A DNA stretch of 64,000 nt from a virus: positions 32,001 to 96,000 of IMG/VR virus record IMGVR_UViG_3300032770_000003; one strand, given 5' to 3'. The number at the start of each line of letters is the position of its first letter. Positions within the stretch are counted from its first letter, which is position 1. Positions 20,880 through 49,461 of this stretch are shown piece after piece. A program made the position numbers and the translations under genes. The notes below the pieces were generated by a model that had not been told where the DNA came from, did not search any database, and saw only the letters and a list, made by a program, of their open reading frames with translations.

Positions 20880-21386
20880 TCAGCCGCAACCCTGATCTGT
20901 TGCGGTGACTTCATTCCATGTAAGGTAATTTACAATCTTGGAGATCGCCGTTTGCCCTACTCCAAACTCTGCAGCAAGCACAGACTGTAGAGCACCTTCC
21001 GTGAATCGACGACGGATCTCCTCAACAGCCTTTCTAGTCAGCTTGCTTTGTGGGTGTGCGTCCCCTCGATTGTAGTGACTGGCGTGGCGGTGCTTTCGCC
21101 ACATGTCGTACATGTTCAGACTGTAGTCTCCAAGAAAGAGATGCTCAGGACGAACACACGGAGGAGTATCGCAAGTATGTAACACCAACATCCCATCCGG
21201 AATCGCCCCAAAAAAGTACTCCCAAGAAACACGATGCGCTTGAAGATGCCGGGTCCTCCCAGCTTGCGTTATCGTGTAGTGGCCATAGCCTTTGCGAAGC
21301 TTCGCAGCAGACCACAACCAGCAGCCATCCGTAAACTTAACCTTGTCCCAAAACCGGGCAGATCCCACAGGTAATGAGCGCAACAT
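20880..21386 (-). CDS. free-standing HNH homing endonuclease with C-terminal HTH
   Basis: RFWDKV...CWLW...GYG...AHRVSW...VLHTCD.P.CV.PEHL.LG...N; SKLT...V.EIR...LA.EFGV; ATG overlaps RNR stop (TGATG). Confidence 0.9.
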   Translation of the reverse strand: MLRSLPVGSARFWDKVKFTDGCWLWSAAKLRKGYGHYTITQAGRTRHLQAHRVSWEYFFGAIPDGMLVLHTCDTPPCVRPEHLFLGDYSLNMYDMWRKHRHASHYNRGDAHPQSKLTRKAVEEIRRRFTEGALQSVLAAEFGVGQTAISKIVNYLTWNEVTATDQGCG

Positions 21387-24300
21387 CAACCACACCCTTG
21401 TGACCAACCACAGGTTCGGCAGGTAAGACAAGCACCGGCTCTCTGCGCAGGATTCCCACATTGACCACACACAAATCCGCTGGTCGGCTTGACCACCGCT
21501 TGCTCCTGTGTGTTGGCGATGATCTTCACCGCCGCTGCCAGCTCATCCACCTGCTCTTGGTTCAGCTGTGCTTCGCTGAACTCCGAACCCAGCCAGCGGA
21601 AGAGGTAGTCAAGCGGTGATTTGGCGAATCGTACGGCAGCGTACTCAGTCATGCCTGCTGGCTCGAAAGACGTGTACGAGAACTTGTCCACCAGCACCTC
21701 AAGCGGTACCCCGTACTGCAGGCACAGCGATGTCAGCACCCCGACGGCGTCCATCAGGCCCGAGACTGTCGAGCCCTCCTTGGACATCTTGATGAAGATC
21801 TCGCCTGGCTTGCCGTCGCTATAGAGCCCAACGTGGATGTACCCTTCGTGACCGCCGATACTGAACTTGTGCCGGTGAGACATCACATCGGCCGGCAGCT
21901 TCTTCCGCGTCTGCAGCGGTACCGGAGAGGTCTCGGAAGGCGCTGAAGCTGTCTTGCTCTGCAACGGCTGCGTGCGCTTGGAACCGTCACGGTACAGCGC
22001 CACCGCTTTGAGACCCTTGCGCCACGCCAGCTGGTACAGATCGCTGATCTGCTGCTCCGTCGCATCGTTCGGGATGTTGCACGTCTTCGAGATCGCACCC
22101 GACACGAACGGTTGCACGGCGCTCATCATGAGAATGTGCGCCTGAGGTCGCAAGAAGCGACCTCCGACTGGATCAGGAAAGCTGCTATCGAACACCGGCT
22201 GGTGCCGCACGTCCAGCCCCGGCGCACCTACGGTCGATCCGTGTTCGAGCACGTACTGCGAGATGCCCCCGACCGTTGTCTCATCGTACCCCAGACACCC
22301 AAGCGCACGGATGACCTGCTGGTTCGTCATCGTGAGAGTGCCACCCCCCACCAGTTTCTTGACTTTGATCAGCGACAGCTCCGGCTCGATGCCCGTGGTA
22401 TCGCAATCCATGAGAAAGGAAATCGTTCCCGCTGGCGCAAGAACACTGATCTGACCGTTCCGGTAGCCGTGCCTCGATCCCAGCGCCAAACAGCGAGCCC
22501 ACGCATCTGTGGCTGCATCCGCCAGGGACGCGATCGTGTCGTTGGGCCCGGTGATCGTGTCCTCGGCAAATGAGACCTTTGCTACAGCGTTCTGATGCAT
22601 GCGCATGACGCGCAGCATGTCAGATTCGTTGTAGGCATCGAAGGCGCCCTTGACTTCTGCGATCTCGGCGGAGCGTGCGTACCCACGTCCCGAGAGGATG
22701 GCGGTCACGTACGCGGCTTGGGCGCGAGCTTCGTTCGAGTCGTAGGCCAAGCCCTGGGCCATCAAGAAGGCGCCCAGGTTGCTGTAGCCGATGCCTAGCG
22801 TGCGGTGCCTGCTGCTGTTCGCCTGCATGAGCGGCGTGGGGTAACTGGCGCCGTCGACCAAGATCTCCTGCGCCGTGATCATCACGTCGATCACGTGCTC
22901 GAAGCTCTTGACGTCGACACTCCCATTGTCACGCAGGAACTTGAGCAGATTGATCGACGCCAGATTGCACGCCGTATCGTTCAGGTACATGTACTCGCTG
23001 TTCGAAACAATAGGAGCGTGTTCAAAACCAGGACAAGCAATCCCAAAATTATGAGTGGCCACAACCTCGATGTCATAGACAGACACCGGCATATCCAGTG
23101 ACAAAAACTCAACAGATGCGACCTTATCGTTTACATCAGCACGATGCGCTTCGATGAAGTCGGAGAACTCTGTCCAGCTCATCCCATGAATACGCCCCCC
23201 ATCACGTGAATGCGCGATTGGAATCGAACCAAGCAATCCATGATCCCTAACATGACTGTTCCAGCGCCACACAGTAACTGGTCCAGTGGACTCCAACGCC
23301 TCCCACGCCTCTACCAACACACAAGGTTCTACGCTAATGAAGCGTGGATTTCGGGCACCAGTTGAATGCTCTGATTGGTGGCTTCCGATGGTTGTTAATT
23401 CATAGTTCGAGAGACGATCATCTGTTGCGTCATTGTTTCGATGATGAACCTGCATCCCTTTTGGAATAGACCCATTCACTTGTTCCCACAGCCAACGGTT
23501 GAACCACTCAGTTCCGTTTGCTGAAGTCTCAGTTACGCGATGATTGATTGTCCTGCGATTGTTTCGCTGAACATTACGAGTAAAACTCAGCTTCATGAGC
23601 CGCATACCTGGCTTCAATCGCTGCGCTTCAACAGATGAACCATTGCGCAAATACCAATGATGCTCAGGTGTACACGTAAACTGTAAACCCCGCTCAGTCG
23701 TAACCTTAACTAGTGATGTAGTTTCACCAGCTTTCCAAGCTTTTTTGATTTGTTTCGCCACGGGTAGGCGTGTCTCGAAATCATAGGAGAGCGCCAAAGG
23801 CAACTTCTCCATGTCTGCAAGTTGACCAATCGGTATACGCCCTTCACTAGTCTCCACCAACGTCTCCCCTACAAAACAGCAAGGATTCGACGCCTCGATC
23901 CTGCCGTCAGTGGGGCAGGTGTGCCAGCGGTTGATGGTTGTGTCGAACTGCAGTCCTGGGTCACCGCAAACGTGAGCGGCTTTGCAGATCTCTTCCCAAA
24001 GCATGCGTGCTTTGACGGTTTCGAGCACCGCCGTCTTCCCATCACGAGCCATGAGGTTCCAGTCGGCGTCGCTTTCCACCCGTCGCATGAACTCGTCAGT
24101 AACGCGCACACTGTGATTCGCGTTTTGGAACGGCACTAGCTGATAAGCACCCCACCGCGCTCGGAAGTCGCCCTCGAAGCCAGCGTCGATGAGCGCATGA
24201 GCCGCTTTCTCACTCTGCGCCTTGCTGCGGATGAACTCCAGAATATCGCCGTGGTCGATATTCAGAATCGCCATCTTGGCCGCTCTTCGTGTCGTGCCAC

Positions 24301-25015
24301 CGCTCTTGATCGCGCCCGCGTTGAAATCGTCCTTGGCAATGAAGGGCACTGGACCCGATGCCATCCCACCACCAGAGAGACCTTCACGCGAGCTACGCAG
24401 CTTGGAGTAGTTGACCCCGGAGCCACTGCCACCTTTGTAGAGACGTCCTTCGATCTCCGCCAATTCCAAGATCGAGGTCATTGTGTCTTCGAGCCCAACT
24501 ATGAAGCACGCTGAACATTGCTCAGCACGAAGTGCACCACCCGATGTGCCTACGTTGAACCAGACCGGTGAGTTGAAGGCGGCTATCTGGTGCAGAAGGA
24601 TGTAGCTCAGCTCGTCTCGAAAAACTTCATGAGCCGCTTTCGCACCATTCGACTTGACGTCGGGGAAGTATCCCAGCTCCACCCCCCAGCGTGCGATCGT
24701 CCCAGCGACACGACTGATCATTTGCCGGACGCTGGTCTCACGAACCTTCGTGTCGAGAGACGGCACGTACCGGAAGTACTTCTCCGCGGTGACCATGGCG
24801 CAGTTCTGAGACCAGGTCGCGGGGAACTCCAGATTGTGGCCACGGAAGACCACCTCACCATTCGGCTTCGTGATCTCCACCGTTCGGTGTTCCCACTTCA
24901 CTGTGCTGTAGACATCAGCCTCCGGCGAAACGAACTGCGACAACACAGTCAGCATCAGCTGCTTTTGATCGACCGGAACACCAGCACTCGAAGTACCAAA
25001 GCCACGCAGCTCCAT
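21386..25015 (-). CDS. nrdJ: class II (adenosylcobalamin-dependent) ribonucleotide reductase with C-terminal TSCPD/Zn domain, intein-containing
   Basis: FNSPVWFN, QCSACFI, SGG.TRRAAKM, SNPC|SEY, ACNLASINL, APAGTISF, SGAISKT, YRDGSKRTQPL; start at MELRG. Confidence 0.95.
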   Translation of the reverse strand: MELRGFGTSSAGVPVDQKQLMLTVLSQFVSPEADVYSTVKWEHRTVEITKPNGEVVFRGHNLEFPATWSQNCAMVTAEKYFRYVPSLDTKVRETSVRQMISRVAGTIARWGVELGYFPDVKSNGAKAAHEVFRDELSYILLHQIAAFNSPVWFNVGTSGGALRAEQCSACFIVGLEDTMTSILELAEIEGRLYKGGSGSGVNYSKLRSSREGLSGGGMASGPVPFIAKDDFNAGAIKSGGTTRRAAKMAILNIDHGDILEFIRSKAQSEKAAHALIDAGFEGDFRARWGAYQLVPFQNANHSVRVTDEFMRRVESDADWNLMARDGKTAVLETVKARMLWEEICKAAHVCGDPGLQFDTTINRWHTCPTDGRIEASNPCCFVGETLVETSEGRIPIGQLADMEKLPLALSYDFETRLPVAKQIKKAWKAGETTSLVKVTTERGLQFTCTPEHHWYLRNGSSVEAQRLKPGMRLMKLSFTRNVQRNNRRTINHRVTETSANGTEWFNRWLWEQVNGSIPKGMQVHHRNNDATDDRLSNYELTTIGSHQSEHSTGARNPRFISVEPCVLVEAWEALESTGPVTVWRWNSHVRDHGLLGSIPIAHSRDGGRIHGMSWTEFSDFIEAHRADVNDKVASVEFLSLDMPVSVYDIEVVATHNFGIACPGFEHAPIVSNSEYMYLNDTACNLASINLLKFLRDNGSVDVKSFEHVIDVMITAQEILVDGASYPTPLMQANSSRHRTLGIGYSNLGAFLMAQGLAYDSNEARAQAAYVTAILSGRGYARSAEIAEVKGAFDAYNESDMLRVMRMHQNAVAKVSFAEDTITGPNDTIASLADAATDAWARCLALGSRHGYRNGQISVLAPAGTISFLMDCDTTGIEPELSLIKVKKLVGGGTLTMTNQQVIRALGCLGYDETTVGGISQYVLEHGSTVGAPGLDVRHQPVFDSSFPDPVGGRFLRPQAHILMMSAVQPFVSGAISKTCNIPNDATEQQISDLYQLAWRKGLKAVALYRDGSKRTQPLQSKTASAPSETSPVPLQTRKKLPADVMSHRHKFSIGGHEGYIHVGLYSDGKPGEIFIKMSKEGSTVSGLMDAVGVLTSLCLQYGVPLEVLVDKFSYTSFEPAGMTEYAAVRFAKSPLDYLFRWLGSEFSEAQLNQEQVDELAAAVKIIANTQEQAVVKPTSGFVCGQCGNPAQRAGACLTCRTCGWSQGCG
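23000..23878 (-). mobile_element. intein in RNR active-site loop (293 aa) carrying an HNH endonuclease
   Basis: NPC|CFVGETLV...CTPEH...VHHRNN...DDRLSN...VYDIEV..THNF...IVSN|SEY; AT-richer than flanks. Confidence 0.92.
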
Positions 25016-25028
25016 CAGAGTTCCCCTT

Positions 25029-26303
25029 TCAAAGCTCGTTCGCGTTCTTGAGGCGTTGATAAGTCTTGTTCTGGCGCAGCCACTTCGTATCGAAGTAGGC
25101 TTGTGCCTGATCACCCTTGGCGAAGATTCGGAGAATCTCCTCCTCCGACTTCTGGTGAACAGTCATCAGACGCTTGAGTGTGCGCTCGCTGAACGCGTAG
25201 CGAACAGCAAGAGACACCTCCGGCGCAGCACGGGTCTGCCCCACGATCGGTGCCTCAGGATCAACCGCCCCCGCTGCGATCTCAGCTTGGTAAGCGCGCA
25301 CGCGCTCGATCGCATTGAACCGACTTGGTGTCACGCCGATCAGCTCCCAGATGCGGGGCTCACGCAGAAACCAGCGATCGAACCAGAAAAACTGGGCGCG
25401 CACGAAGGTCTCACACGAGACCCCTAGCTCATCAGCCAGCTCTGCCGCTCTGAGAAAGCACGTGTACTGCTGATTCCCGGGTGAAAGGAGCACCGTCGAA
25501 TTCGGCACCTTCCAGCTGTTCCGGTACCAGCGCAGGTGTACGTTGTACGTCTGGGACATCGCATAGACCCGTGCACGGTCCGCGCTGTCAGCAAGCCGAA
25601 CGTTGCGCTGTACGGGCGCACGGGACGCACGTATCAGGTCTTCGATGGAAGCGCGCTGAAAGCTGGCACCATTTTCGCTACGCGCGCGTGCACGCGCGCG
25701 CGAGAGATCACGGTCAAGAAGACGTTGGGTCTCAGGGTCCGGGATGTTGGGGACCCTAGTCGCCAATCTCGCCGAGTGACCTTCGGCTCCGTTCGCTCTG
25801 CTGCCCTGCGGGCAGCTCCGCTCCGGATCCGAAGATGCGGTACCACGCATCATTTTAATTCCCGACGAAGGAGCGGCTAAAGTAGCATTTTCACTAGGAG
25901 CATTTTCACTTGACAGATCCTCGGTGACCCCCCCTATGGCTAACGTAGCACTATTATTGGGGTTATCACTGACCGTATGTGTTAAGGTAGCATTATCATT
26001 CGGGTTTTGTTCATTCACAGTTTTAGGATTCATAGCGTCATAGTACTGGTTGTTGACGCACTTTGTGCCGCTAGCAGTCAACTGAACCAGGGGACGTCCT
26101 TCGGGATCCTTCTCGCGCTCACGGAAGTACCCCAGGTAGAGTCCCCACTCCATCACCTGCACCACCTGTCGTGGGTGGCACTTGATGAGCCGGGCGATGT
26201 CGCTACAACCGAAGACCACCGCCGGGCCCCAACGTCTCAGGCCGAGAGTTTTGAAGAGTGACTCCAGGCGTACTTTCACAGGCGCAGGACATAGCTCAAG
26301 CAC
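25029..26303 (-). CDS. putative replication initiator (N-terminal winged HTH, low-complexity linker, RARAR motif, helical C-terminal domain)
   Basis: AGGAGG RBS before GTG at 26303; HTH-like SDIARLIKCHPRQV...; linker encoded by AT-rich direct repeats; lies between SF2 and DnaB helicases. Confidence 0.6.
   Translation of the reverse strand: MLELCPAPVKVRLESLFKTLGLRRWGPAVVFGCSDIARLIKCHPRQVVQVMEWGLYLGYFREREKDPEGRPLVQLTASGTKCVNNQYYDAMNPKTVNEQNPNDNATLTHTVSDNPNNSATLAIGGVTEDLSSENAPSENATLAAPSSGIKMMRGTASSDPERSCPQGSRANGAEGHSARLATRVPNIPDPETQRLLDRDLSRARARARSENGASFQRASIEDLIRASRAPVQRNVRLADSADRARVYAMSQTYNVHLRWYRNSWKVPNSTVLLSPGNQQYTCFLRAAELADELGVSCETFVRAQFFWFDRWFLREPRIWELIGVTPSRFNAIERVRAYQAEIAAGAVDPEAPIVGQTRAAPEVSLAVRYAFSERTLKRLMTVHQKSEEEILRIFAKGDQAQAYFDTKWLRQNKTYQRLKNANEL
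25882..26000. repeat. four 14-bp iteron-like direct repeats inside the initiator gene
   Basis: GTAGCATTTTCACT (25882), GGAGCATTTTCACT (25897), GTAGCACTATTATT (25945), GTAGCATTATCATT (25987). Confidence 0.7.
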
Positions 26304-40588: not shown

Positions 40589-41347
40589 TCAGTACAGCAT
40601 CCAAAAGAAATTCGCGACCGAGAACGCGTCGGTGCATGTGTAGAGCAGCTTCAGTCGCGTGAGCCCGGTCAAGGACACGAATCCCGCTTCGACCACAAAC
40701 GGTGTCTGCGGAGATGTGATCGGCGCCAAGGTTGTCACGAGTGTTCCATCCGCTCCGGTCACGGTGCCACCTGTGCGCACCTGAATCGTGACTGATCCTG
40801 GACCTGTGATGACGCCGCCGATGCGCAAGCGTCGAGGCGTACCGATCACGGCTTCGTCTACAATGATTCCAGCTATGTAGGTTGGTGTAAGAGTCGTGGA
40901 CAACGCACTCGGCAGTGTTCCATTGAAACTCAGGAGGAGAGCTGGCTTCCCTGGTCTTACGGTTCCTCCCACTGGATAAATGAACAGACTGGGTCGCTGC
41001 GCGAACGCCGTCTGACCGGTGAGCTTTACGAGCTGTATACCGGTCCAGATGTTGGTGATGGTCTGACTGACGGCGAAAAACTGGAACCCACCACTCGTAC
41101 TGTACGTCTGATCTAGGGTGACGGTGCCATCTACCGTGTTGTAGGTACCACCGATCCTCAATCTGATTCTTCCCGACTGCGCACCATTGCCACAGTTGCC
41201 AGCGAATAGCACAACGAACTGTGCGGGCAACTTGTCGAAGTCAACCCAGTAGCCTTCGTAGGCGTTTCCTAGGTCTTCCGGACCAGCGGTTGCGTTCCAT
41301 TGGTTGTTCGATAGGCGAAACAGTTCAAACGCCATCGTATCCATCAC
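40589..41347 (-). CDS. hypothetical tail/baseplate protein with internal duplication
   Basis: Two copies of (L/V)R(I/T)GGT....DGT.V...TG...(V/L)KL. Confidence 0.65.
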   Translation of the reverse strand: MMDTMAFELFRLSNNQWNATAGPEDLGNAYEGYWVDFDKLPAQFVVLFAGNCGNGAQSGRIRLRIGGTYNTVDGTVTLDQTYSTSGGFQFFAVSQTITNIWTGIQLVKLTGQTAFAQRPSLFIYPVGGTVRPGKPALLLSFNGTLPSALSTTLTPTYIAGIIVDEAVIGTPRRLRIGGVITGPGSVTIQVRTGGTVTGADGTLVTTLAPITSPQTPFVVEAGFVSLTGLTRLKLLYTCTDAFSVANFFWMLY

Positions 41348-44271
41348 TGCACCTCGATCAGCAACACTGCCTCAGTCACTGAGGTAGCTGAGCTGTTGTC
41401 TTGGAAGGTCAAAAGCAGTCCAAGAACCCCGGACGGAGGTGTCAGGGTCACACTCAGTGAGAACAGTCCCGTCGTTGTCAAATTGAAGGTCGCTCCTACG
41501 GGACTGGATGAAAGCGGCAAACTCAAATCAGTCACGTAACGTAACCGCCATACGGTTCCGGCTCCAGCCGTTGCCACGTTGCCGGTCAGGCGAGCTGTGA
41601 AGGTCGTAGCTCCAGCAGCCAAGATCGTATCGAAATCAAAAGCACGGCTCATCCCGATTTCGGTTTCAGTCGTATTACCTCCGAATGAGGCACCAGCCGC
41701 CCACGAACCAAGCAAGTACACCGGAGCTGGTGGAGGAGGTGCGGCTGCGCCAGGCTCAATCTGGAGGCACGAATCCAGGACAGTCACCTGCACGCCTGCC
41801 GCACGAATCAGATCGATCAGCCCCATGAAGCACTGGATCGGTGAGGACGGCATACGGAACGGATAGTCCGTCCCCGTGGAGCCCGGGAGGCTGCTGCCAG
41901 GACTCCAGATGACAGACTCGCCCACGGTGTAGGCGGTATCGAGGATCGTCGGCTCCTCCAGCGTGAACGTCGTGCTGTCGTGTGTGGTATACGAGAGGAC
42001 CGTGGGGGCTCCTGCACGCAGAGCAACGTAGTCACCTGCGGCGAAGGTTCCCACCAGCGGTGCGCTCAACGTCAACTGATTGAGTGTGGTGTTGTTCGCG
42101 CTGACGTGGGCCCACTCTTGAGTGATCAACCCTTCGCCTACCAACACCGGATAGGCAAAATTACCAGTGGGGAAAACGGAGCTGTCATCGAACTGCAGTA
42201 CTGTGGAGGAAACCACGACTGTGATCTTCTTGCGAACGCTGAGGCGGTTGGTACCGAAGTTCAGCCACAGCGATCCCGCACTCGGAAACCCTGTAGTACT
42301 TGCGGTCAGCAGTGACGAAGTCAGCTTCTCGACTGGGTGCCCAAACCGCGACGGGTTGATGGAGTCGCCCGTGTGTGGTTGGGTCAACGGATCGAAGGTC
42401 AATACATCATTCAACAGTTGAACCGTTTCGCCGCTACTGTGGTTCTTGGTCAGGGGTGTCGTTGAGACGAGCGTCAGTGTGCCGGGTGCAGCGTCCGTGT
42501 TGTCCTTGACGAGGACAACCTCTTGATGGGAACCACCTTGATCAATAATGACTTGATAGCCAGCATCGTGGATGCTGTCTGACGAGTCCGGGAACGCAGT
42601 GGAGTCGACCAAGGTGATCGAGAAATCACCGATGCTGGCGCCTGTGTTCAGCGTCGACTGTCCGTTGATACGGAGGTTGACCGCCAAGAGGGTCATGTCC
42701 TCCTGGAATCCAGTGTCACGTCCGATGCGGACAGGGTAGCTCGGTGTTGGCCACTGATAGGCGTCGTCGACTTCCAGGCAGGTTCGCCCAACCGTCTGGG
42801 AGACGACCACGCGTGTGGGAGGAGGAATCGCTACGATCGCTCCCCCCGAACGCGCCAGCGTCGTGCGAACCAAAGACGGCGCATTCTGGAGGACGTCATA
42901 GAGGTAGGGCCCTGACCACTCTGGTGCCGTGTTGATCGTTCCACCAGAGGTGCGTAGGTTGCCCTCTTCGAGATCGGTCCCACTGTATGGCTGCGGGTCC
43001 AATACGACCGTGGCGCCGATCGGGAAACTCGAACCAATGGCTTCCGCCAACGTGACGATCGATGTACTGGAGTCGTAGGTCAGATACTGGATGGTTGTCG
43101 TGCCCCCTACGATGATGGTACCCGTCGGGAACGGAAGACCACTGACGTCGTCGACTGTGATCGTCGTATCCGTGGGTGACGTAGGAACGATCACTGCCGT
43201 CGAGAAAGCGGGGGCTGAAGCTGCGTGGATATAGGACGCGTCTACCAGGCGACGAATGAGCGTCTGGGGCGGCAGACAGATCTTGACGCTGTGGGGTTGA
43301 CTCTCAAGAACCTCCCAAGGCACACCCTTCTGAAGTACAGACACCGTCTGCACCACAGAGCCCGGAGTTACCAGCTCGACGTACTCTGCAGGCGACGACG
43401 CGTGTGTGTGCTTCAGCGGCGTCTTCAGACTGAGCACACCTGTCGATGGATCGTTGGCGATGAACTGAATCACCTCTTCGTTGACAGCACCCGCGTTGAT
43501 CCGAACGAATCCGGTGGCGGGGAAGACACGAGTCTGGCTGGCGCCAAAAAGCAGAAAGACGCCGCCGACCACCGTAGCGAGTGTGATCGGTCGGACGACG
43601 AAGCCAAGTGGCCTAGCTCCGACATGATCTTGAGTGGTGGCCGCGAAAAGCGTCAGTGTGTTGGTGCCGGTGTTGTTTGCTGTCACCCGCACGACTTCCT
43701 CAGTGGGCAGACCCTGATCGATGAGAGCTGCGTACGGGAAGCCGCTCGTCGGAAAGAGCGCCGTGGATCGTAGAACCAGCGAGGTGGCCCCGGCAGCAGT
43801 ATCCGCCGCGAGATAGTTTAGGGCAGTGGCAACAGGGCTGTGAGCAATCGTCAGTGAGTCACTGAGAAACACCTTGTTGCTGGCGAGGTCACGGAAGCAG
43901 AAGTCGACCGTCTCTTCCGTGGGTAGACCCGGATCGAACACGAGCGTACCCACCTGGACCAACGGGCTGGCATCGGTGAGGACCACGACGTCGTCACCGA
44001 TGGCCGAAGCTCCCGCCAGGTAGGCCACGCGGGTCTTTTGCGGTCCCACACAGATCTCAAGGAGCCGGTAGAAGATGTTCCGGACTTCTTTGAAGGACAG
44101 CCCTACCTGCTTTGCCAGCGCCCGCCACTCATCGTCCTCGATGCCCTCGAACGGCCGATCAAGACCGAGGTTGGAGGTGACGACGTTGAGGTGCACGCCG
44201 TCTGCGGTATCCAAGAACAGCTGATCGCGCGTCTCTTGGATCGCGCTCTGGGTCTTGTCGCGACAAGCCAT
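41344..44271 (-). CDS. baseplate wedge-like protein with tandem ~70-aa modules
   Basis: LDTADG..L......GL.R......DDEWR N-terminus and IRAAGV near the end, typical of wedge proteins following baseplate J. Confidence 0.75.
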   Translation of the reverse strand: MACRDKTQSAIQETRDQLFLDTADGVHLNVVTSNLGLDRPFEGIEDDEWRALAKQVGLSFKEVRNIFYRLLEICVGPQKTRVAYLAGASAIGDDVVVLTDASPLVQVGTLVFDPGLPTEETVDFCFRDLASNKVFLSDSLTIAHSPVATALNYLAADTAAGATSLVLRSTALFPTSGFPYAALIDQGLPTEEVVRVTANNTGTNTLTLFAATTQDHVGARPLGFVVRPITLATVVGGVFLLFGASQTRVFPATGFVRINAGAVNEEVIQFIANDPSTGVLSLKTPLKHTHASSPAEYVELVTPGSVVQTVSVLQKGVPWEVLESQPHSVKICLPPQTLIRRLVDASYIHAASAPAFSTAVIVPTSPTDTTITVDDVSGLPFPTGTIIVGGTTTIQYLTYDSSTSIVTLAEAIGSSFPIGATVVLDPQPYSGTDLEEGNLRTSGGTINTAPEWSGPYLYDVLQNAPSLVRTTLARSGGAIVAIPPPTRVVVSQTVGRTCLEVDDAYQWPTPSYPVRIGRDTGFQEDMTLLAVNLRINGQSTLNTGASIGDFSITLVDSTAFPDSSDSIHDAGYQVIIDQGGSHQEVVLVKDNTDAAPGTLTLVSTTPLTKNHSSGETVQLLNDVLTFDPLTQPHTGDSINPSRFGHPVEKLTSSLLTASTTGFPSAGSLWLNFGTNRLSVRKKITVVVSSTVLQFDDSSVFPTGNFAYPVLVGEGLITQEWAHVSANNTTLNQLTLSAPLVGTFAAGDYVALRAGAPTVLSYTTHDSTTFTLEEPTILDTAYTVGESVIWSPGSSLPGSTGTDYPFRMPSSPIQCFMGLIDLIRAAGVQVTVLDSCLQIEPGAAAPPPPAPVYLLGSWAAGASFGGNTTETEIGMSRAFDFDTILAAGATTFTARLTGNVATAGAGTVWRLRYVTDLSLPLSSSPVGATFNLTTTGLFSLSVTLTPPSGVLGLLLTFQDNSSATSVTEAVLLIEVQ

Positions 44272-44274
44272 GAG

Positions 44275-46107
44275 CTAGTTCACCGTCACCAAGCTGGCCC
44301 CGGAGATGTCATTCGGACGGGGCAGCTCGTTCTCCAGGACGATCACGTTGGACGTCGGGATGGTCACAATGGTGTCGGCGACACCGGTTACGGACATGGC
44401 ACGCCGGATGATCTCCGCTCGGATGACATCGCCACCGATCCCCAGCCCATTGATGTAGGCTTCGATCGCTTCTTGGACCGTGGGCGCTAGGTCCACCTCC
44501 TGGAATCCTGGCTTGGCCGTGATGGAGAGTCTGACGGTTATGCGTCTGATGACCGGAACGTCGACAATGACTCTGACGCCTGCCGGTCGTAGCCCAGGGA
44601 AGTCCGTCGGGTCAGACGGATCGCCATTGATGACTTTCTGAGCATCGAACATCAGCGCTGTGTAGTAGGAGTAGTTCGCGAACACGGCAGAGCCCGCGGC
44701 CACTCCGAAGCTGATGAACTCGATCTCTCCCGTTCCCCGATTCAGGAAGTAGTCGATGTTCTCCTGCTTCAGCACCGGTGCCAGGCTGGGCGGCTGTACC
44801 CACAGACGAAACGATGAGCGAATGATGGGGTAGTTGCTCAATGTGAAGAAGCGCTCCCCGCTCTCAGCGTCGAGAGTCATGGCGTCCACCACAGCGACTT
44901 CCACACCCGCCAGATGGCTGTTCACGGTGGGGCTTGAAAGGGTCACCGTGTTCGTTGTGAAGTTCACCGCGCTGAAGGGAAGCACCTCCATGTTGGCCGT
45001 GTTCTCCGGCTCGATGATCAGAATGCCCTGGGTGACGAACTGAGACACGTCTGTGAGAGACAGACTGCTGGTGGGAGTTGTTACCGGCGACGCCAACGTG
45101 GTCCGAGCAAGGTCGACTTGGTCGGGTGTGAAGCCGGTTCCGTCGTCGATATAGACGATCACCTCATCAGCTACGAAGTCCTCCAGGATGTTGGCAGTGG
45201 TGACCCGCTGGCCAGTGACCGTATCCTCAACACCAAGAACGCCCTGCTGCAGGCTCAGAACAGTTCCTCGCGACAGGGACTGAATCTGGGCACGCGCACG
45301 GTCGCGAAGCTCGTCATCGCTTTCGAGGTCGCGGCCACCAGCGAAGTTGGTGATGTTGGTGACCAGCGCACCATTGAAGGGCAGGCTACTGACGAACTGA
45401 GTGATCTTGCTCGTTCCGATGTTTCCATCAGAGCCCGGAATCTCTGCCAGAGCACGGATGGGTGTCGACTGAAAGTTGCCCGCGACGATGGTGCCGGTTT
45501 CAGTGGTGTCGAAGATGATGGAGGCGGTCGTCGACGTCGCGGGTACTTGCACCCGGATGCCCGGCTGAAGCGTGATGTCACTACCGGAGACCAACGAAAC
45601 ACGCTCAGCGATGCCGTGGGCGTTCACCAGCGGACTGGAAAACGTAAGCTGACCTGTGCCGGTGTTGTTGGCACTGACGTCGATGTCCTCAACTGCCGTG
45701 GTACCCTCACCGATCCGAACGACGTAGGGGAAACCGCTCGTGGGGAAGGCGCTGGAGTTCTCGATGAACGCTGAGGTCGCGCTGCTTGGTACGCTGAAGA
45801 CCAGATCGGACGTGACGAGATTGCCATTTTCGATCAGCACCGTTCCGGATGCGGCCTGAGGCTGGAGGCGGATGATGTTGTACTCCGCAACGCGGTCATC
45901 AAGATCCTGCCCCGCAGCCGATGTCAGGCGGAAGGCATCCAGCAACATGACCATCTGGAAGTACTGCTCGTCATCCTCCAGAGCAGCTGCTTCGATGATG
46001 GTCCGGATGACTGAGCCGACTTCGAAGTCGGTCAGCTCAGTCTGCATCCGGACATACGCGATCATGTCGTCTCTCACTTCTTCGAACGTTCGCGGTGTAA
46101 ACGCCAT
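44275..46107 (-). CDS. baseplate J/gp47-family wedge protein
   Basis: TDFEVGSVIRTI.EA, AAGQDLD, GG.D.ESD.ELR.R, RPAGV, YIN.LGIG.DVI; ATG overlaps upstream stop (TAATG). Confidence 0.9.
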   Translation of the reverse strand: MAFTPRTFEEVRDDMIAYVRMQTELTDFEVGSVIRTIIEAAALEDDEQYFQMVMLLDAFRLTSAAGQDLDDRVAEYNIIRLQPQAASGTVLIENGNLVTSDLVFSVPSSATSAFIENSSAFPTSGFPYVVRIGEGTTAVEDIDVSANNTGTGQLTFSSPLVNAHGIAERVSLVSGSDITLQPGIRVQVPATSTTASIIFDTTETGTIVAGNFQSTPIRALAEIPGSDGNIGTSKITQFVSSLPFNGALVTNITNFAGGRDLESDDELRDRARAQIQSLSRGTVLSLQQGVLGVEDTVTGQRVTTANILEDFVADEVIVYIDDGTGFTPDQVDLARTTLASPVTTPTSSLSLTDVSQFVTQGILIIEPENTANMEVLPFSAVNFTTNTVTLSSPTVNSHLAGVEVAVVDAMTLDAESGERFFTLSNYPIIRSSFRLWVQPPSLAPVLKQENIDYFLNRGTGEIEFISFGVAAGSAVFANYSYYTALMFDAQKVINGDPSDPTDFPGLRPAGVRVIVDVPVIRRITVRLSITAKPGFQEVDLAPTVQEAIEAYINGLGIGGDVIRAEIIRRAMSVTGVADTIVTIPTSNVIVLENELPRPNDISGASLVTVN

Positions 46108-46859
46108 TACACAATCTCCTTGAACCATGTTTGTGCGATGGCAGCTTTTCGTTCGAGCGCAACAGAAGCTTTCGCATATAGGAGTCTTGCTACGTGAACA
46201 GCTTCAGTGCTTCGGCTGATCGTTATACGATGACAGTTCACCCTCTTGTACTTAGTAACACTCACATCAGTGTGAATAAAAACCTTGAACTGCTCACACA
46301 GTCGGCGTGACCCACACAGCGTAATATTCGGATATAGGTAACCGCGGATCTTGTCTTTCTTCGTAGTCAAACAACCGTCACCGTCGATGACTCCACGCCA
46401 AAAATGACGATTCTCTTGAAGAATGGGAGACGCCGCTTCCTGACCACTCTTACGAGGAACCACACCATAGCTGGCAAGCTTTGCTGCCATCCAGTCAGAC
46501 GGAAACTTGAGTTGCCAGCTTCGTCCATGCTTGGTAAGGGGGTACGTACCCTTCACGAACACCCGGAATTTACCGACGTGCTCCCGGTCTGCACTGGTCA
46601 CGCTGACAACCACCTGTCCACGGTAGCTATCCAACAAGCAGCCATCAGCTAACAAGAACCCAGCCCAGTAGGCAGATACGTCGGTCACGCAGTCAAAGAC
46701 ATGTTCATCGACGAAATGGTGTCGACGATTACCCTGGGGCCGGGGTTCACTGATTCCTTTCCGGATCCAGTATTGACTGAGCTGATACTTCGCCGCCAGG
46801 CTACGTATGGTAGCCCCGGCTTGATACTCTGAGTCGTAGGTTCTGGGGGTAAAGCTCAT
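46107..46859 (-). CDS. free-standing LAGLIDADG homing endonuclease
   Basis: AYWAGFLLADGC and HFWRGVIDGDGC motifs, GVVPRKS, LERK; AT-richer than neighbours. Confidence 0.92.
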   Translation of the reverse strand: MSFTPRTYDSEYQAGATIRSLAAKYQLSQYWIRKGISEPRPQGNRRHHFVDEHVFDCVTDVSAYWAGFLLADGCLLDSYRGQVVVSVTSADREHVGKFRVFVKGTYPLTKHGRSWQLKFPSDWMAAKLASYGVVPRKSGQEAASPILQENRHFWRGVIDGDGCLTTKKDKIRGYLYPNITLCGSRRLCEQFKVFIHTDVSVTKYKRVNCHRITISRSTEAVHVARLLYAKASVALERKAAIAQTWFKEIV

Positions 46860-46864
46860 GATGA

Positions 46865-48706
46865 TTACCGCCGGGTGTCGAAGGCGACAGTAACGGTCTG
46901 ATCGGAGTCAGCGATGTCAAGCGTCGCTGCCACCGTCAACACGTTCCCTTCAGACTGAAATGACAGCGCCCGCACATCGCTGATCCTAGTATCACCGAGT
47001 AGGGACGCGCGCGTGTTGAGCTGGAAGCCTACTAGGCTGCGAAGAAGAACTTTCCTGCCGATCGGGGCCTGAACACCAAAGTTTGGGTGGGTAGGGAGGG
47101 TGCCCTGCTCCGTCGAGAACTTGATCACGATCGCTTGCGAGAGGTTGTCGAGCCCTTCGATCTGATCGAGATCTCCCTGGGGATTGCCCCCGATGTCATA
47201 GATCGGGAGTCCGCCCGCCCCCTGCTCAGCGCGCAGCCGGAGATCGAGCCCCAGTCGAGTCGTCAGGTCTGACTGCTGCGCCACCTTGGTCGGAGACACC
47301 CCCGAGAGCGTCTCGCCCCCGCTGGTCGGGAACAGAATCGTGTCCCCTGGTCGAAGCACGTTGACACCGTCGCCGGTGGGGTCGATGTACGGCTGCTTGA
47401 GGTTGTTGGTGATGACCAGCTCTTTCCAGCGCGCCTGATCCCCGAGCAGGCGCTGAGAGATGGTGTAGATGTTGTCGCCACCGTTGATGGTGGCCAATGC
47501 AGTGCCGTTGCCGGCGGTCACATTCTGCAGATCGGTGGGACTGCCGCCTGTCAGCGGTGGCCGTCCATCGTTGTCGGTGTTCCGATAGGCCGAAGCTCGG
47601 GTATCGAACTGCTGACCGATGGATGGTGAGAAGAGCTTGTCTTGCGAGGTCACCCGGGTGCTCGCGCGCTGAATGCGCTTGGCGGCTTCCCGCACGAGTG
47701 CCCATTGGGTGCTGATGCCTTGCTGGGTGTACGCGTTTACCTGGTTCTGGAACGATGCCAGTGACTCCATCAGACCGATGGCGGAGTTGGCCAACAAGGC
47801 GACGGAGTTTCTCGGAATCGCCAGCCCCTGAGCTGTCGTCGCCAGCACGCCCGTCAACCCATCGAGCAGCGCCCGCGCGGGTGCTGTCACTTCGTTGATC
47901 GTCGCTTGTGCCACTCCGATCGTGCGGTCGACCAAGCTGTTGACCGTGTTCAGCGCCGCTGAAAGCTCACGTACGATCTGAGCGAGCGTCCCAGTCACCT
48001 GCTGGAGAGCGTTCCGTTGAATCCTGGAGTCAGGTCGGCGCTCCAGCAAGAAGGTCACCTTGCTGATGGTGCGCAGCTGGATCTCGTAAGCGAAGGTGAC
48101 GGGGTTGGAAGCGTCTCGCTTGGTCTTGAACGAGACGGGCTCCACCAGGTAGAATTCCCCCTCCTTCCCGTTCTGCCAGACCATGATGATCGACGACGAG
48201 ATGGCCGGGTCAGCCTTGAAGTCGAAGTACCTGCGAAAGAGGTTGCGGAGATCGATGAAGTCCTGAAAACCGCTGCTCTCTCCGGGTGGGAGCAGCGTCG
48301 TGGGCTCGATCGGGGTCACGGCAAACGGGTTCGGCACCCCCAGGATGGGAATCAGTGAGTTCTGTTGGCTGCGGTTCGGACGTAACCCGGTGGTGCCTGT
48401 GATGGTGATGGTCTTGTAGACCGAACCCTGGTGCTCGACGAACTGACCACCATCCTGGGTGGGGGTGATGGTCATCGACGCTGGCTCATCAAGATCCAGC
48501 GTCTTGGGGTTCATGTTGAACACGAACTCGATAGCGTTCGGACCCTTAGTTGCCGCCTGAGCCAGCGTGCTCCCTGGCGCACCATTCAAGGCTGTGAACT
48601 TCGTATCGAGCAGAGCAAGGGCATAGAGCCCCGCACTGTCACTGCGAGACGAGATCCGCCAGTTGCGTGGATCAGGATTGGAGAGGGTGTTGCTACTAGC
48701 CATCAC
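46865..48706 (-). CDS. tube-initiator-like + LysM + gp25-like baseplate fusion protein
   Basis: F.MNP...(tube initiator-like N-terminus), GDNIYTISQRLLGD..RW......N.L...PG..I (LysM), GDL..IEG.DNL.QAI...T..G.L..HP.FG...D.RI..V (gp25/W). Confidence 0.8.
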   Translation of the reverse strand: MMASSNTLSNPDPRNWRISSRSDSAGLYALALLDTKFTALNGAPGSTLAQAATKGPNAIEFVFNMNPKTLDLDEPASMTITPTQDGGQFVEHQGSVYKTITITGTTGLRPNRSQQNSLIPILGVPNPFAVTPIEPTTLLPPGESSGFQDFIDLRNLFRRYFDFKADPAISSSIIMVWQNGKEGEFYLVEPVSFKTKRDASNPVTFAYEIQLRTISKVTFLLERRPDSRIQRNALQQVTGTLAQIVRELSAALNTVNSLVDRTIGVAQATINEVTAPARALLDGLTGVLATTAQGLAIPRNSVALLANSAIGLMESLASFQNQVNAYTQQGISTQWALVREAAKRIQRASTRVTSQDKLFSPSIGQQFDTRASAYRNTDNDGRPPLTGGSPTDLQNVTAGNGTALATINGGDNIYTISQRLLGDQARWKELVITNNLKQPYIDPTGDGVNVLRPGDTILFPTSGGETLSGVSPTKVAQQSDLTTRLGLDLRLRAEQGAGGLPIYDIGGNPQGDLDQIEGLDNLSQAIVIKFSTEQGTLPTHPNFGVQAPIGRKVLLRSLVGFQLNTRASLLGDTRISDVRALSFQSEGNVLTVAATLDIADSDQTVTVAFDTRR

Positions 48707-49461
48707 TCACCTGTGACTGCTTTGAGCACCTCGCGGGGTTTGGCATTCTCGATCTTGTCGAGGACGCGGACCGCTTTGTGGATGTTGCCCTGGAACAACG
48801 AGCGCGAGTTGACCAACTCCTTGAGTGACTGAAGGACGGCGTCCTCCAGGGTGAACTCGTCACCAACCGGCTCCGTGGTGTTGTTCGTCAGAAGATCGGC
48901 CAGGCGCAGGATACGGAACGCCCGCGACCGATGTTGTAGCTCTGTGAGCGTCGCCGGTCCGTCTTGGATGATCTGGCAACCCAGACACTGATTCGGAGTC
49001 TGGAAGATGGCCAACAAGTACTTGCGCTCATCCTCAGTCAGGATGAGTGTCTTGCTTGGCATCCGCGCGTAGTCTTCAGCAAAGAACGACACGTCCAGCG
49101 TGCGCTTGAGTCCGATCGTGATGGGCTCCAACAGCCACGACAGGTCTGAATAGCGGACCCGCCTCTCCAGCACACCGAGCAGGTAGCGAGCTGCCTCGAA
49201 CTCCAAAGCATGTTCGGTCTTCGGTGCATCCGCATTGAGCCCCTCACGAATCATGCGGGCTATCTCGTCACGAGGCATGTCCTCGAAAAGGTTGAGCCCC
49301 AACCCATCCAACACGTCACAGTGCCGGCGGATGTGCTGCGGTGACTCCGATGAGAGGAGTTGGATTCGACAGTCTTGGCAGCGTCGCACAACGTTCAGGA
49401 CGAAGTTCAAGGCCGCCTTGTCGGCAGTGGTAAGGGACAACGGAATCGACACTTTCTTCAT
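48703..49461 (-). CDS. hypothetical protein with two CxxC repeats, possible fibre assembly chaperone
   Basis: LT..DK.AL...RCQDC and LT.DERKYL...QCLGC repeats; follows tail fibre. Confidence 0.6.
   Translation of the reverse strand: MKKVSIPLSLTTADKAALNFVLNVVRRCQDCRIQLLSSESPQHIRRHCDVLDGLGLNLFEDMPRDEIARMIREGLNADAPKTEHALEFEAARYLLGVLERRVRYSDLSWLLEPITIGLKRTLDVSFFAEDYARMPSKTLILTEDERKYLLAIFQTPNQCLGCQIIQDGPATLTELQHRSRAFRILRLADLLTNNTTEPVGDEFTLEDAVLQSLKELVNSRSLFQGNIHKAVRVLDKIENAKPREVLKAVTGE

Follow-up and report, generated by a model that had tools for sequence, protein, structure and literature searches.

A phage homing endonuclease gene that begins with a relic of the baseplate J gene: a putative 5'-end analogue of the WHO elements of yeasts and the gene hybrids of fungal mitochondria

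In the WHO elements of Torulaspora and Lachancea yeasts, a homing nuclease gene lies beside its essential target gene without any intron or intein splicing, and every integration exchanges one end of the target gene for the donor's diverged version, the recipient's old end being left behind as a fragment (Coughlan et al. 2020; PMC7282813). In the mORF gene hybrids of fungal mitochondria, such as Allomyces macrogynus atp6 (Paquin et al. 1994) and Glomus atp6, atp9, cox2, and nad3, the endonuclease ORF carries a foreign copy of the host-gene terminus, often in phase with the host codons, and the native and inserted termini are 64-81% identical in DNA while encoding nearly the same protein (PMC3630166). 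The free-standing homing endonuclease genes (HEGs) of T4-like phages (seg and mob; intronless homing) occupy intergenic positions between conserved essential genes and cut the neighboring gene of HEG-free phages (PMC2988022). Some of them, such as mobE in Aeh1 nrdA and mobA in T4 gene 39/60, lie inside essential coding regions whose function is kept, the gene being split into two polypeptides that reassemble (PMC2988022). Experiments in T4 have shown that, when homology is available on one side only, homing proceeds one-sidedly and repair produces illegitimate junctions at microhomologies (Parker et al. 1999, summarized in PMC2988022).

The window analyzed here, a 64,000-nt stretch of the 171-kb genome of an uncultured phage, contains an arrangement that, judged by analogy, appears to be the 5'-end phage counterpart of the WHO elements and the mORF hybrids. 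A LAGLIDADG-type HEG stands between tti, a tube/sheath-initiator gene, and bpj, the baseplate J gene (Table 1), and its first codons (copy A) resemble the start of bpj (copy B). The two-copy layout of the WHO and mORF systems, with a working and a relic gene end around a nuclease ORF, is thus recognizable here at the sequence level, and likewise in three of the metagenome contigs described below (L091-L093). The differences concern the gene end, the enzyme, and the host. WHO elements replace the 3' end of FBA1 and leave the fragment unexpressed, whereas here the 5' end is affected and the relic, only 3-9 codons long, appears to be reused as the start codon and first codons of the nuclease. The WHO nucleases are intein-like with a zinc finger and reside in yeasts, while the protein described here combines an HTH with a double LAGLIDADG core and is encoded in a phage genome; allele-specific cleavage is a demonstrated property of WHO and a presumed one here. 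The mORF hybrids affect the C-terminal end in mitochondrial genomes, and their native termini matched a close relative (91-98%), compared with 68% for the best relative here. The T4 HEGs encode GIY-YIG or HNH enzymes and have their own starts, whereas the LAGLIDADG gene described here would be read from the start of its target gene, whose cutting is inferred. Unlike the genes split by mobE and mobA, bpj loses nothing, the locus containing two versions of its first codons. Neither PMC2988022 nor the other literature searched describes a HEG that is read from the start of its target gene and accompanied by a duplicated target 5' end.

Table 1. Features of the tti-HEG-bpj region, in window coordinates
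Feature	Position	Strand	Description or basis
tti (tube/sheath-initiator gene)	46865..48706	-	613 aa; C-terminal end ..VAFDTRR*
Spacer TCATC	46860..46864	-	5 nt, tti stop to HEG ATG; counterpart of the 2-10 nt pre-bpj spacer in HEG-free relatives
HEG, putative free-standing LAGLIDADG homing endonuclease gene	46107..46859	-	250 aa; N-terminal three-helix HTH and double-motif nuclease core
Copy A, relic bpj start (codons 1-9)	46833..46859	-	MSFTPRTYD, the first nine HEG codons (ATG AGC TTT ACC CCC AGA ACC TAC GAC, read 46859..46833); bpj profile match; ancestral start position
HTH helices (residues 7-13, 18-25, 29-35)	46755..46841	-	Alignment and AF2 model
LAGLIDADG motif 1, YWAGFLLADGCL	46635..46670	-	D72 and G73 invariant in 30-sequence alignment
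LAGLIDADG motif 2, FWRGVIDGDGCL	46368..46403	-	D159 invariant, D161 nearly invariant in 30-sequence alignment
AAGGAG, Shine-Dalgarno sequence for bpj	46116..46121	-	8 nt 5' of bpj ATG, within the last HEG codons (..FKEIV*)
Copy B, working bpj start	46081..46107	-	MAFTPRTFE (ATG GCG TTT ACA CCG CGA ACG TTC GAA, read 46107..46081); ATG overlaps HEG stop (TAATG)
bpj (baseplate J gene)	44275..46107	-	610 aa; PF04865, E 2.5e-19

The HEG product matched PF14528 with 29.6 bits (cut-off, 22.5) and 2dch in a profile search (E 3.7e-10). In a Foldseek search, its AF2 model (pLDDT 92, pTM 0.83) retrieved I-Tsp061I (E 1e-9), I-AniI, and I-SmaMI, all with a probability of 1.0. The two motifs and the pseudo-symmetric alpha-beta-beta-alpha-beta-beta-alpha double-domain fold of the model place the protein in the monomeric two-motif LAGLIDADG family. 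With the catalytic Asp residues conserved, a LAGLIDADG fold predicted, and a GC3 of 54% versus 74-76% in the flanking genes, the gene looks both intact and foreign. The first HTH helix is chimeric, consisting of the bpj-derived residues T7-D9 and HEG-derived residues. The HEG lacks both a promoter and a strong Shine-Dalgarno sequence of its own, and a scan for promoter and terminator consensus sequences returned nothing exceeding shuffled controls. Predicted tryptic peptides of its N terminus are SFTPR and TYDSEYQAGATIR.

The gene upstream of the HEG, previously labeled "gp25" from the sequence, had to be renamed: its product is a 613-aa protein with the tail-tube-initiator domain PF23980 (E 1.2e-10), and the match to the gp25-like sheath initiator PF10934 is confined to the C terminus and weak (E 0.005, below the cut-off). 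This gene is syntenic with bpj in 83 relatives. The matches listed for bpj include 119 homologs with 44-68% identity and query coverage of 98-100%; the bpj product is the sole member of its protein cluster. A DNA search of a phage collection with positions 44000-49000 gave no match, and the sole match in the protein search was the bpj of Myxococcus phage Mx1 (31%). The nearest relative is identical for tti and bpj, and discordant ancestry of the two is not visible at this resolution. Six bpj homologs seemed to be devoid of the N terminus; in the two that were checked (L003 and L004), the gene had been called from Met14 and an ordinary start was found 42 nt upstream. Similarly, inserts suspected from longer bpj matches (L009, L010, L040, and L042) turned out to be second matches in the next gene.

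In 83 HEG-free relatives (80 viral loci plus L002-L004), bpj comes directly after tti, with its ATG 2-10 nt past the tti stop codon. The ATG of the HEG, 5 nt past the tti stop, occupies that same position, which indicates that the HEG took over the ancestral start. These relatives agree with the sequence-only reading, according to which the endonuclease gene had entered a structural gene near its start and inherited its translation start, albeit at a depth of ~9-10 codons rather than ~8. Comparison of the junction in HEG-free relatives, suggested by the same reading, bore out the position of the bpj start but, with relatives being at most 68% identical, did not tell apart the two spellings as ancestral. 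No near-identical HEG-free genome was found in the collections, nor did exact-pattern scans of viral contigs reveal a HEG-free variant of the same species. In each of the 150 best HMMER hits, homology to the HEG family sets in at residue 6-13, with which the alignment agrees, and a bpj-like starting peptide was detected in none of the ~220 HEG homologs in other contexts. The earlier question of whether homologous endonucleases elsewhere also start with an SFTPRT-like peptide is thereby answered: only those at the tti/bpj junction do. The restriction of bpj-like starts (MAFTPRT.., MAFQ.., and MTFT..) to this junction strengthens the capture reading. By sequence comparison, the first nine HEG residues come from bpj and not from the HEG family. 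The HEG homologs P0002, P0003, P0007, P0009, and P0420, from other contexts, are found at unrelated sites and have their own HEG N termini.

Both start sequences quoted in the sequence-only reading are present on the minus strand, to the base, and bpj does begin within the HEG stop codon, the TAA (46109..46107) and the ATG (46107..46105) having one A in common. The last HEG codons, which contain the Shine-Dalgarno sequence of bpj, are outside the conserved HEG core. As had been noted, the two peptides are nearly the same while the codons differ: 6 of the 9 residues are shared and the 3 differences are conservative, whereas the DNA has 18 of 27 nt in common (pS 0.82, pN 0.24), with 4 of the 5 same-residue codons being synonymously different. 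Scored against a profile of 101 bpj N termini (consensus M[AST]F[VTQ]PR[TSQ][FY][ED]), copy A obtained 20.7 bits without the Met, compared with 29.2 bits for the real bpj start. It ranks second among the 271,636 stop-free six-frame 9-mers of the 171-kb genome, the third scoring 14.0 bits; among the M-starting 9-mers, the next best after the bpj start and copy A scores -0.1. Copies that are far apart in DNA and alike in protein indicate different bpj alleles, and the pattern of divergence would fit such a pair rather than a fresh duplication. The low pN beside the high pS shows that the divergence took place under a constraint of the kind acting on bpj. The copies are not separated by the phage's own codon usage (-14.76 log2 for copy A versus -14.67 for copy B), and a search for a donor tract in the 5' part of bpj found no anomaly in GC3 or in windowed identity to 31 relatives. 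In the relatives, tti often ends with AGG AGA TAA/TAG; the Shine-Dalgarno sequence of copy B (AAGGAGAT) may descend from the end of the donor's tti, the common stretch being too short to tell this from convergence of Shine-Dalgarno sequences.

Related HEGs are found at the tti/bpj junction in four further metagenome contigs from other uncultured phages (L091-L094), all of them short and two at low coverage (2.3-2.8x); this recurrence of related HEGs at one junction is a new observation. In L091, MAFTPRT (bpj codons 1-7) is fused to the HEG, and copies A and B have 14 of 21 nt and 6 of 6 residues in common, with 4 codons synonymously different. The fused peptides are MAFQ in L092 and MTFT in L093 (bpj codons 1-4 in each case), and bpj itself starts with MSFQPRTFE and MPFIPRTYE, respectively. 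In each of the four fused loci, the divergence between copies A and B is strong. The bpj gene of L091 has an apparent ATC start. The HEG of L094 (P0318), the closest relative of the window HEG (44% identity, same shortened HTH), is unfused: its own MPRTSP.. start lies 12 nt past the tti stop, and bpj begins 1 nt past the HEG stop. In the tree, junction HEGs cluster in two groups, with fused ones in both and the unfused form in one. None of 160 other HEG loci adjoins tti or bpj. Sporadic at a fixed site, absent from 83 tti-bpj loci, and present in L091-L094, the gene has the distribution of a free-standing phage HEG. The sequence-only reading had regarded the new bpj start as a rebuilt, recoded N terminus; a differently spelled second start does exist, but the simplest origin for it is the bpj of the donor phage, where it would already have stood behind a free-standing HEG, the unfused layout seen in the closest HEG relative.

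The locus is probably the product of a junction-specific lineage of free-standing HEGs that enters diverged phages by one-sided homing, whereby the recipient's bpj start becomes the HEG start and the donor's bpj start is brought along. The simplest layout is that of the closest relative, in which the HEG has a start codon of its own and separates the tti stop from the start of bpj. The window phage departs from this at the left junction: its HEG has lost ~16 of its own N-terminal codons and is joined in frame to bpj codons 1-9/10, so that it would use the ancestral bpj initiation site, and the working bpj restarts at the HEG stop behind the Shine-Dalgarno sequence in the HEG tail. The enzyme would cut HEG-free phages inside the conserved first ~10 bpj codons, the presumed cut site. 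Between diverged phages, usable homology would exist on the bpj side only, so that the break would be repaired one-sidedly, for which the T4 experiments are a precedent. On the right, homologous repair, the presumed route, would copy the donor's bpj start and the HEG; on the left, the recipient's stub of bpj codons would be joined illegitimately to the 5' region of the HEG. In-frame joins would keep the HEG expressed. Copy A would then represent the recipient's relic and copy B the donor's start. Homology is indeed one-sided among 33 relatives: nucleotide identity averages 67.6% over the first 150 nt of bpj but 53.8% over the last 150 nt of tti, and in 524 of 528 pairs the bpj side has the higher value. 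Resistance of the HEG-occupied locus to its own nuclease is plausible; breaking up the site would suffice for it, with or without recoding.

Alternatively, the fused layout could be a selected heritable unit, as in the WHO elements, which in their published model include the gene fragment (PMC7282813). The relic, the HEG, and a resistant bpj 5' end would move jointly by ordinary two-sided homing, and the fusion would be kept for a coupled late-operon start, not re-created by faulty repair. The absence of a promoter and of a strong Shine-Dalgarno sequence would suit such a unit, as would the fusion of four of the five junction HEGs, all in frame and with intact ORFs; four are many for accidents, and the fusion may be selected or part of a mobile unit. 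However, the fusion points vary (codon 9/10, 7, 4, and 4) and the fused HEGs belong to two tree groups, one of which includes the unfused form, so several separate joining events would be needed anyway. In addition, a relic of 3-9 codons is too short for a recombination arm, and this explanation is considered unlikely.

Even less probable is duplication and recoding in situ, whereby the insertion would have duplicated ~27 nt of the resident bpj start and the copies would have become different on the spot, under selection against either cleavage or loss of the HEG through the repeats. The strong divergence of the copies in all four fused loci could be accommodated in this way, since identical direct repeats flanking the HEG would favor its deletion and diverged survivors would be expected. 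However, nine random, unselected substitutions starting from copy B retained the bpj-like profile score in only 8e-5 of simulated trials, and the second codons, Ser AGC in copy A and Ala GCG in copy B, are unlike at all three bases. In L091, all 6 residues are kept over four synonymous codon changes in a leader for which no function in the HEG is known. The overhangs left by LAGLIDADG enzymes are 4 nt long and do not give a 27-nt duplication, and the unfused sister layout of L094 needs none.

There is very little to recommend splicing as the source of bpj, with the HEG residing in an intein or, as is common for intron ORFs in mitochondria, being read in frame with the upstream exon of a group I intron. 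An Rfam search of positions 45500-47500 had no hit at E values of up to 1, and a ribozyme core could not be accommodated, since homology to HEGs spans all 753 nt. The HEG also ends with a stop codon of its own, and the N terminus of bpj is complete, agrees with the consensus, and is preceded by a Shine-Dalgarno sequence and ATG, making splicing redundant. Chance or convergence, conceivable for only 9 residues, is effectively refuted by the second rank of copy A among the genome's 9-mers, by the presence of such peptides in same-site homologs and in none of the ~220 elsewhere, and by the position of the HEG ATG at the ancestral start.

One-sided homing of a junction-specific HEG, the preferred explanation, has several implications. 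For annotation, such fusions give misleading N termini and apparent duplications; for engineering, the layout is similar to that of engineered home-and-rescue gene drives. The junction cases point to the first ~10 bpj codons as the probable target. The five of them, one unfused and four with fusions at various codons, resemble traces left in nature by one-sided illegitimate homing, a process so far demonstrated only in laboratory crosses of T4. Without an intron or intein, and apparently without harm, a selfish nuclease gene can settle within the coding sequence of an essential virion gene by bringing a spare gene beginning and using the original start signals. More tentatively, the HEG and a diverged bpj 5' end might form a self-propagating "cut and rescue" unit specialized on the tti/bpj junction, each move of which would overwrite the start of an essential gene and leave the old start as the nuclease initiation site. 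Still more speculatively, the borrowed baseplate N-terminal peptide might bring the nuclease into baseplate assembly. If the "cut and rescue" unit is real, HEG traffic would propel the evolution of chimeric bpj 5' ends throughout a whole group of large phages.

The window spans positions 32001 to 96000 of a 171,494-bp IMG/VR virus record. Its minus strand carries the tube/sheath-initiator gene (tti), a homing endonuclease gene (HEG) and the baseplate J gene (bpj) head to tail. The HEG ATG lies 5 nt past the tti stop, and the bpj ATG overlaps the HEG stop (TAATG), with an AAGGAG motif 8 nt 5' of it, inside the final HEG codons. The codons quoted in the sequence-only reading for the two similar starts, MSFTPRTYD in the HEG (copy A) and MAFTPRTFE in bpj (copy B), match the sequence exactly.

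Features of the window (window coordinates)
Feature	Position	Strand	Description
tti	46865-48706	minus	tube-initiator protein, 613 aa; PF23980 and weak gp25-like sheath-initiator C-terminal domain
HEG	46107-46859	minus	LAGLIDADG endonuclease gene, 250 aa
bpj	44275-46107	minus	baseplate J, 610 aa
Copy A	46833-46859	minus	bpj-like start heading the HEG
Copy B	46081-46107	minus	working bpj start
HEG tail	46110-46125	minus	Shine-Dalgarno (SD) stretch, AAGGAGAT
nrdJ	21386-25114	minus	ORF of 1242 aa
HNH gene	20880-21470	minus	behind nrdJ
Later gene	41344-44271	minus	gene concerned in second bpj matches

In 3 contigs and 80 viral loci that share this gene order, the HEG is absent and tti is followed directly by bpj, whose ATG lies 2 to 10 nt past the stop of a tti ending in F(D/E)xRR. 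The HEG ATG in the window has exactly this context and occupies the position of the bpj ATG in the HEG-free loci, which bears out the earlier claim that the HEG took over the bpj translation start. The first nine HEG residues also fit the bpj start consensus, M[AST]F[VTQ]PR[TSQ][FY][ED] in 101 full-length homologues: they rank second of 271,636 9-mers scored against the bpj profile (six frames, whole genome), outscored solely by the real bpj start. Homologous endonucleases starting in the same way elsewhere would have pointed to a HEG origin of this peptide, and none of the 76 word-indexed HEG homologues has a bpj-like start. Among the 150 matches inspected of the 11,776 in an exhaustive HMMER search, family similarity begins at query residue 6 to 13 at the earliest, and the alignment and structural model place the joint between bpj-derived and HEG sequence within helix 1 of a predicted three-helix HTH ahead of the nuclease core. 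In six relatives, gene callers start bpj at Met14 (594 to 600 aa); in the two contigs inspected (L003:3959-4000 and L004:3959-4000), an ordinary start, ATG GCT TTY GTA CCN MGA ACA TTC, is found 42 nt upstream of that call, directly 3' of the tti stop.

The HEG matches Pfam LAGLIDADG_3 above the family cut-off and retains the acidic residues in both LAGLIDADG motifs. Its AlphaFold model (30 homologues as input; pLDDT 92) matches I-Tsp061I, I-AniI and other meganucleases with probability 1.0, and a sequence-profile search agrees with this assignment. As expected of a foreign gene, its GC3 is 54%, versus 74 to 76% in both flanking genes. Within the HEG, GC3 declines from ∼0.60-0.66 over the initial 125 codons to ∼0.44-0.50 over the final 100, a trend that may stem from uneven amelioration or from a composite origin. 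The HEG is not an intron, since no RNA family matched anywhere in the region, nor an intein, since it has its own stop codon.

A new finding is that the same junction is occupied in other phages, with the HEG fused to a bpj-like start in three loci and unfused in a fourth, L094.

Other loci with a HEG between tti and bpj
Locus	HEG protein	HEG start	bpj behind the HEG
L091	P0445	MAFTPRT, then HEG sequence	(ATC)AFTPRTFEQ.. after GGGGGAGG
L092	P0376	MAFQ, then HEG sequence	MSFQPRTFE.., ATG overlapping HEG stop
L093	P0361	MTFT, then HEG sequence	MPFIPRTYE..
L094	P0318	own start MPRTSP.., 12 nt past tti stop	MSFIPRSYE.., 1 nt past HEG stop

In the fused loci, the HEG starts 3 to 5 nt past the tti stop. 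P0318, with the MPRxSP start typical of the family, is the closest relative of the window HEG (44% identity) and has the same shortened HTH. In a weakly supported FastTree phylogeny, the junction HEGs form two groups, the window with L094 and L091 with L092 and L093; the sister of the latter group is located behind a tail-tube gene instead. The 160 other HEG loci, drawn from metagenomes as well as viral contigs, have neither tti nor bpj next to the HEG. In L091 (3316-3383), the bpj frame is open for just 5 codons before the conserved AFTPRTFE and contains no ATG, GTG or TTG; the sole candidate start is the ATC 6 nt past GGGGGAGG, either a rare ATC start or a contig error (coverage, 2.8x).

Copies A and B are identical at 18 of 27 nt, with saturated synonymous sites (pS, 0.82) and few replacements (pN, 0.24), all to residues that occur naturally in bpj. 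The other fused loci show 14/21 (L091), 7/12 (L092) and 9/12 (L093) identical nucleotides; in L091, 6 of 6 residues agree despite four synonymous codon changes. When nine random substitutions were introduced into copy B, an equally good bpj-like peptide was obtained in just 8e-5 of trials. A fresh in situ duplication of the bpj start is unlikely on these grounds; the pattern indicates that each copy was a functional bpj start until recently, in a different genome, and that the two are separate alleles.

The fusion joints fall at bpj codon 9/10 in the window, 7 in L091, and 4 in L092 and L093. These differences indicate several separate joining events, all within bpj codons 1 to 10. Among 33 relatives, mean identity is 53.8% over the 150 nt left of the junction and 67.6% over the 150 nt right of it, the right flank being more similar in 524 of 528 pairs, so that a break in the bpj start of a diverged phage would find homology on one side only. 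In T4, one-sided homing produced junctions that were illegitimate and lay at microhomologies (Parker et al. 1999, as reviewed in PMC2988022). In the proposed route, the break would hit a diverged recipient within its conserved bpj start; copy A would be the stub remaining from the recipient, and copy B the start supplied by the donor. In-frame joins would persist since they allow the nuclease to be translated from the coupled late-operon start. Neither the codons of relatives nor codon usage, GC3 or windowed identity told the resident copy from the imported one (the best relative is 68% identical).

The sequence-only reading had the bpj start rebuilt downstream in recoded form. A second start is indeed present there, but the unfused L094 has a normal bpj start behind its HEG, so copy B need not have been rebuilt. 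The main points of that reading, a HEG start at the former bpj position and a bpj-derived peptide, stand; the rebuilding is dispensable. With its site split, the occupied locus would already be resistant to cutting; recoding may strengthen this resistance but is not needed for it.

In many HEG-free relatives (such as L006, L009, L010, L015 and L020), the last tti codons, AGG AGA TAA/TAG, serve as the SD of bpj. The corresponding SD within the HEG tail resembles this tti end, and the import may thus have carried along the tti end of a donor, although the stretch is too short to separate this from convergence. In many relatives, tblastn with bpj gave second matches 2 to 3 kb downstream (bpj residues ∼53-200; 27 to 44% identity), such as L002:7825-8094, L009:7654-8052 and L015:7825-8481; a bpj domain thus seems to be present again in a tail or baseplate gene farther downstream.

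The same genome contains a 3'-end version of the arrangement. The nrdJ product ends in GWSQGCG, and the HNH gene begins at the nrdJ stop (TGATG) and ends in TWNEVTATDQGCG. None of 119 HNH homologues has the GCG tail; their C-termini lie at the TWKHV position or slightly beyond it. The four codons common to the nrdJ and HNH ends each have a different third base (CAA GGG TGT GGT vs CAG GGT TGC GGC). An intein-like insert seems present in nrdJ (from NPC/CFVGETLVE to VATHNFGIA..VSN/S) and includes an HNH-like stretch, HHRNNDATDD.

Literature searches returned no paper describing such a layout in phage HEGs. The same logic, a replaced terminus with the old one left behind, is seen in the yeast WHO elements, which replace the FBA1 3' end at each integration (PMC7282813), and in the mORF gene hybrids of fungal mitochondria (PMC3630166). 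In contrast to both, the HEG/bpj locus involves the 5' end of a phage gene, whose relic now provides the start of the nuclease.
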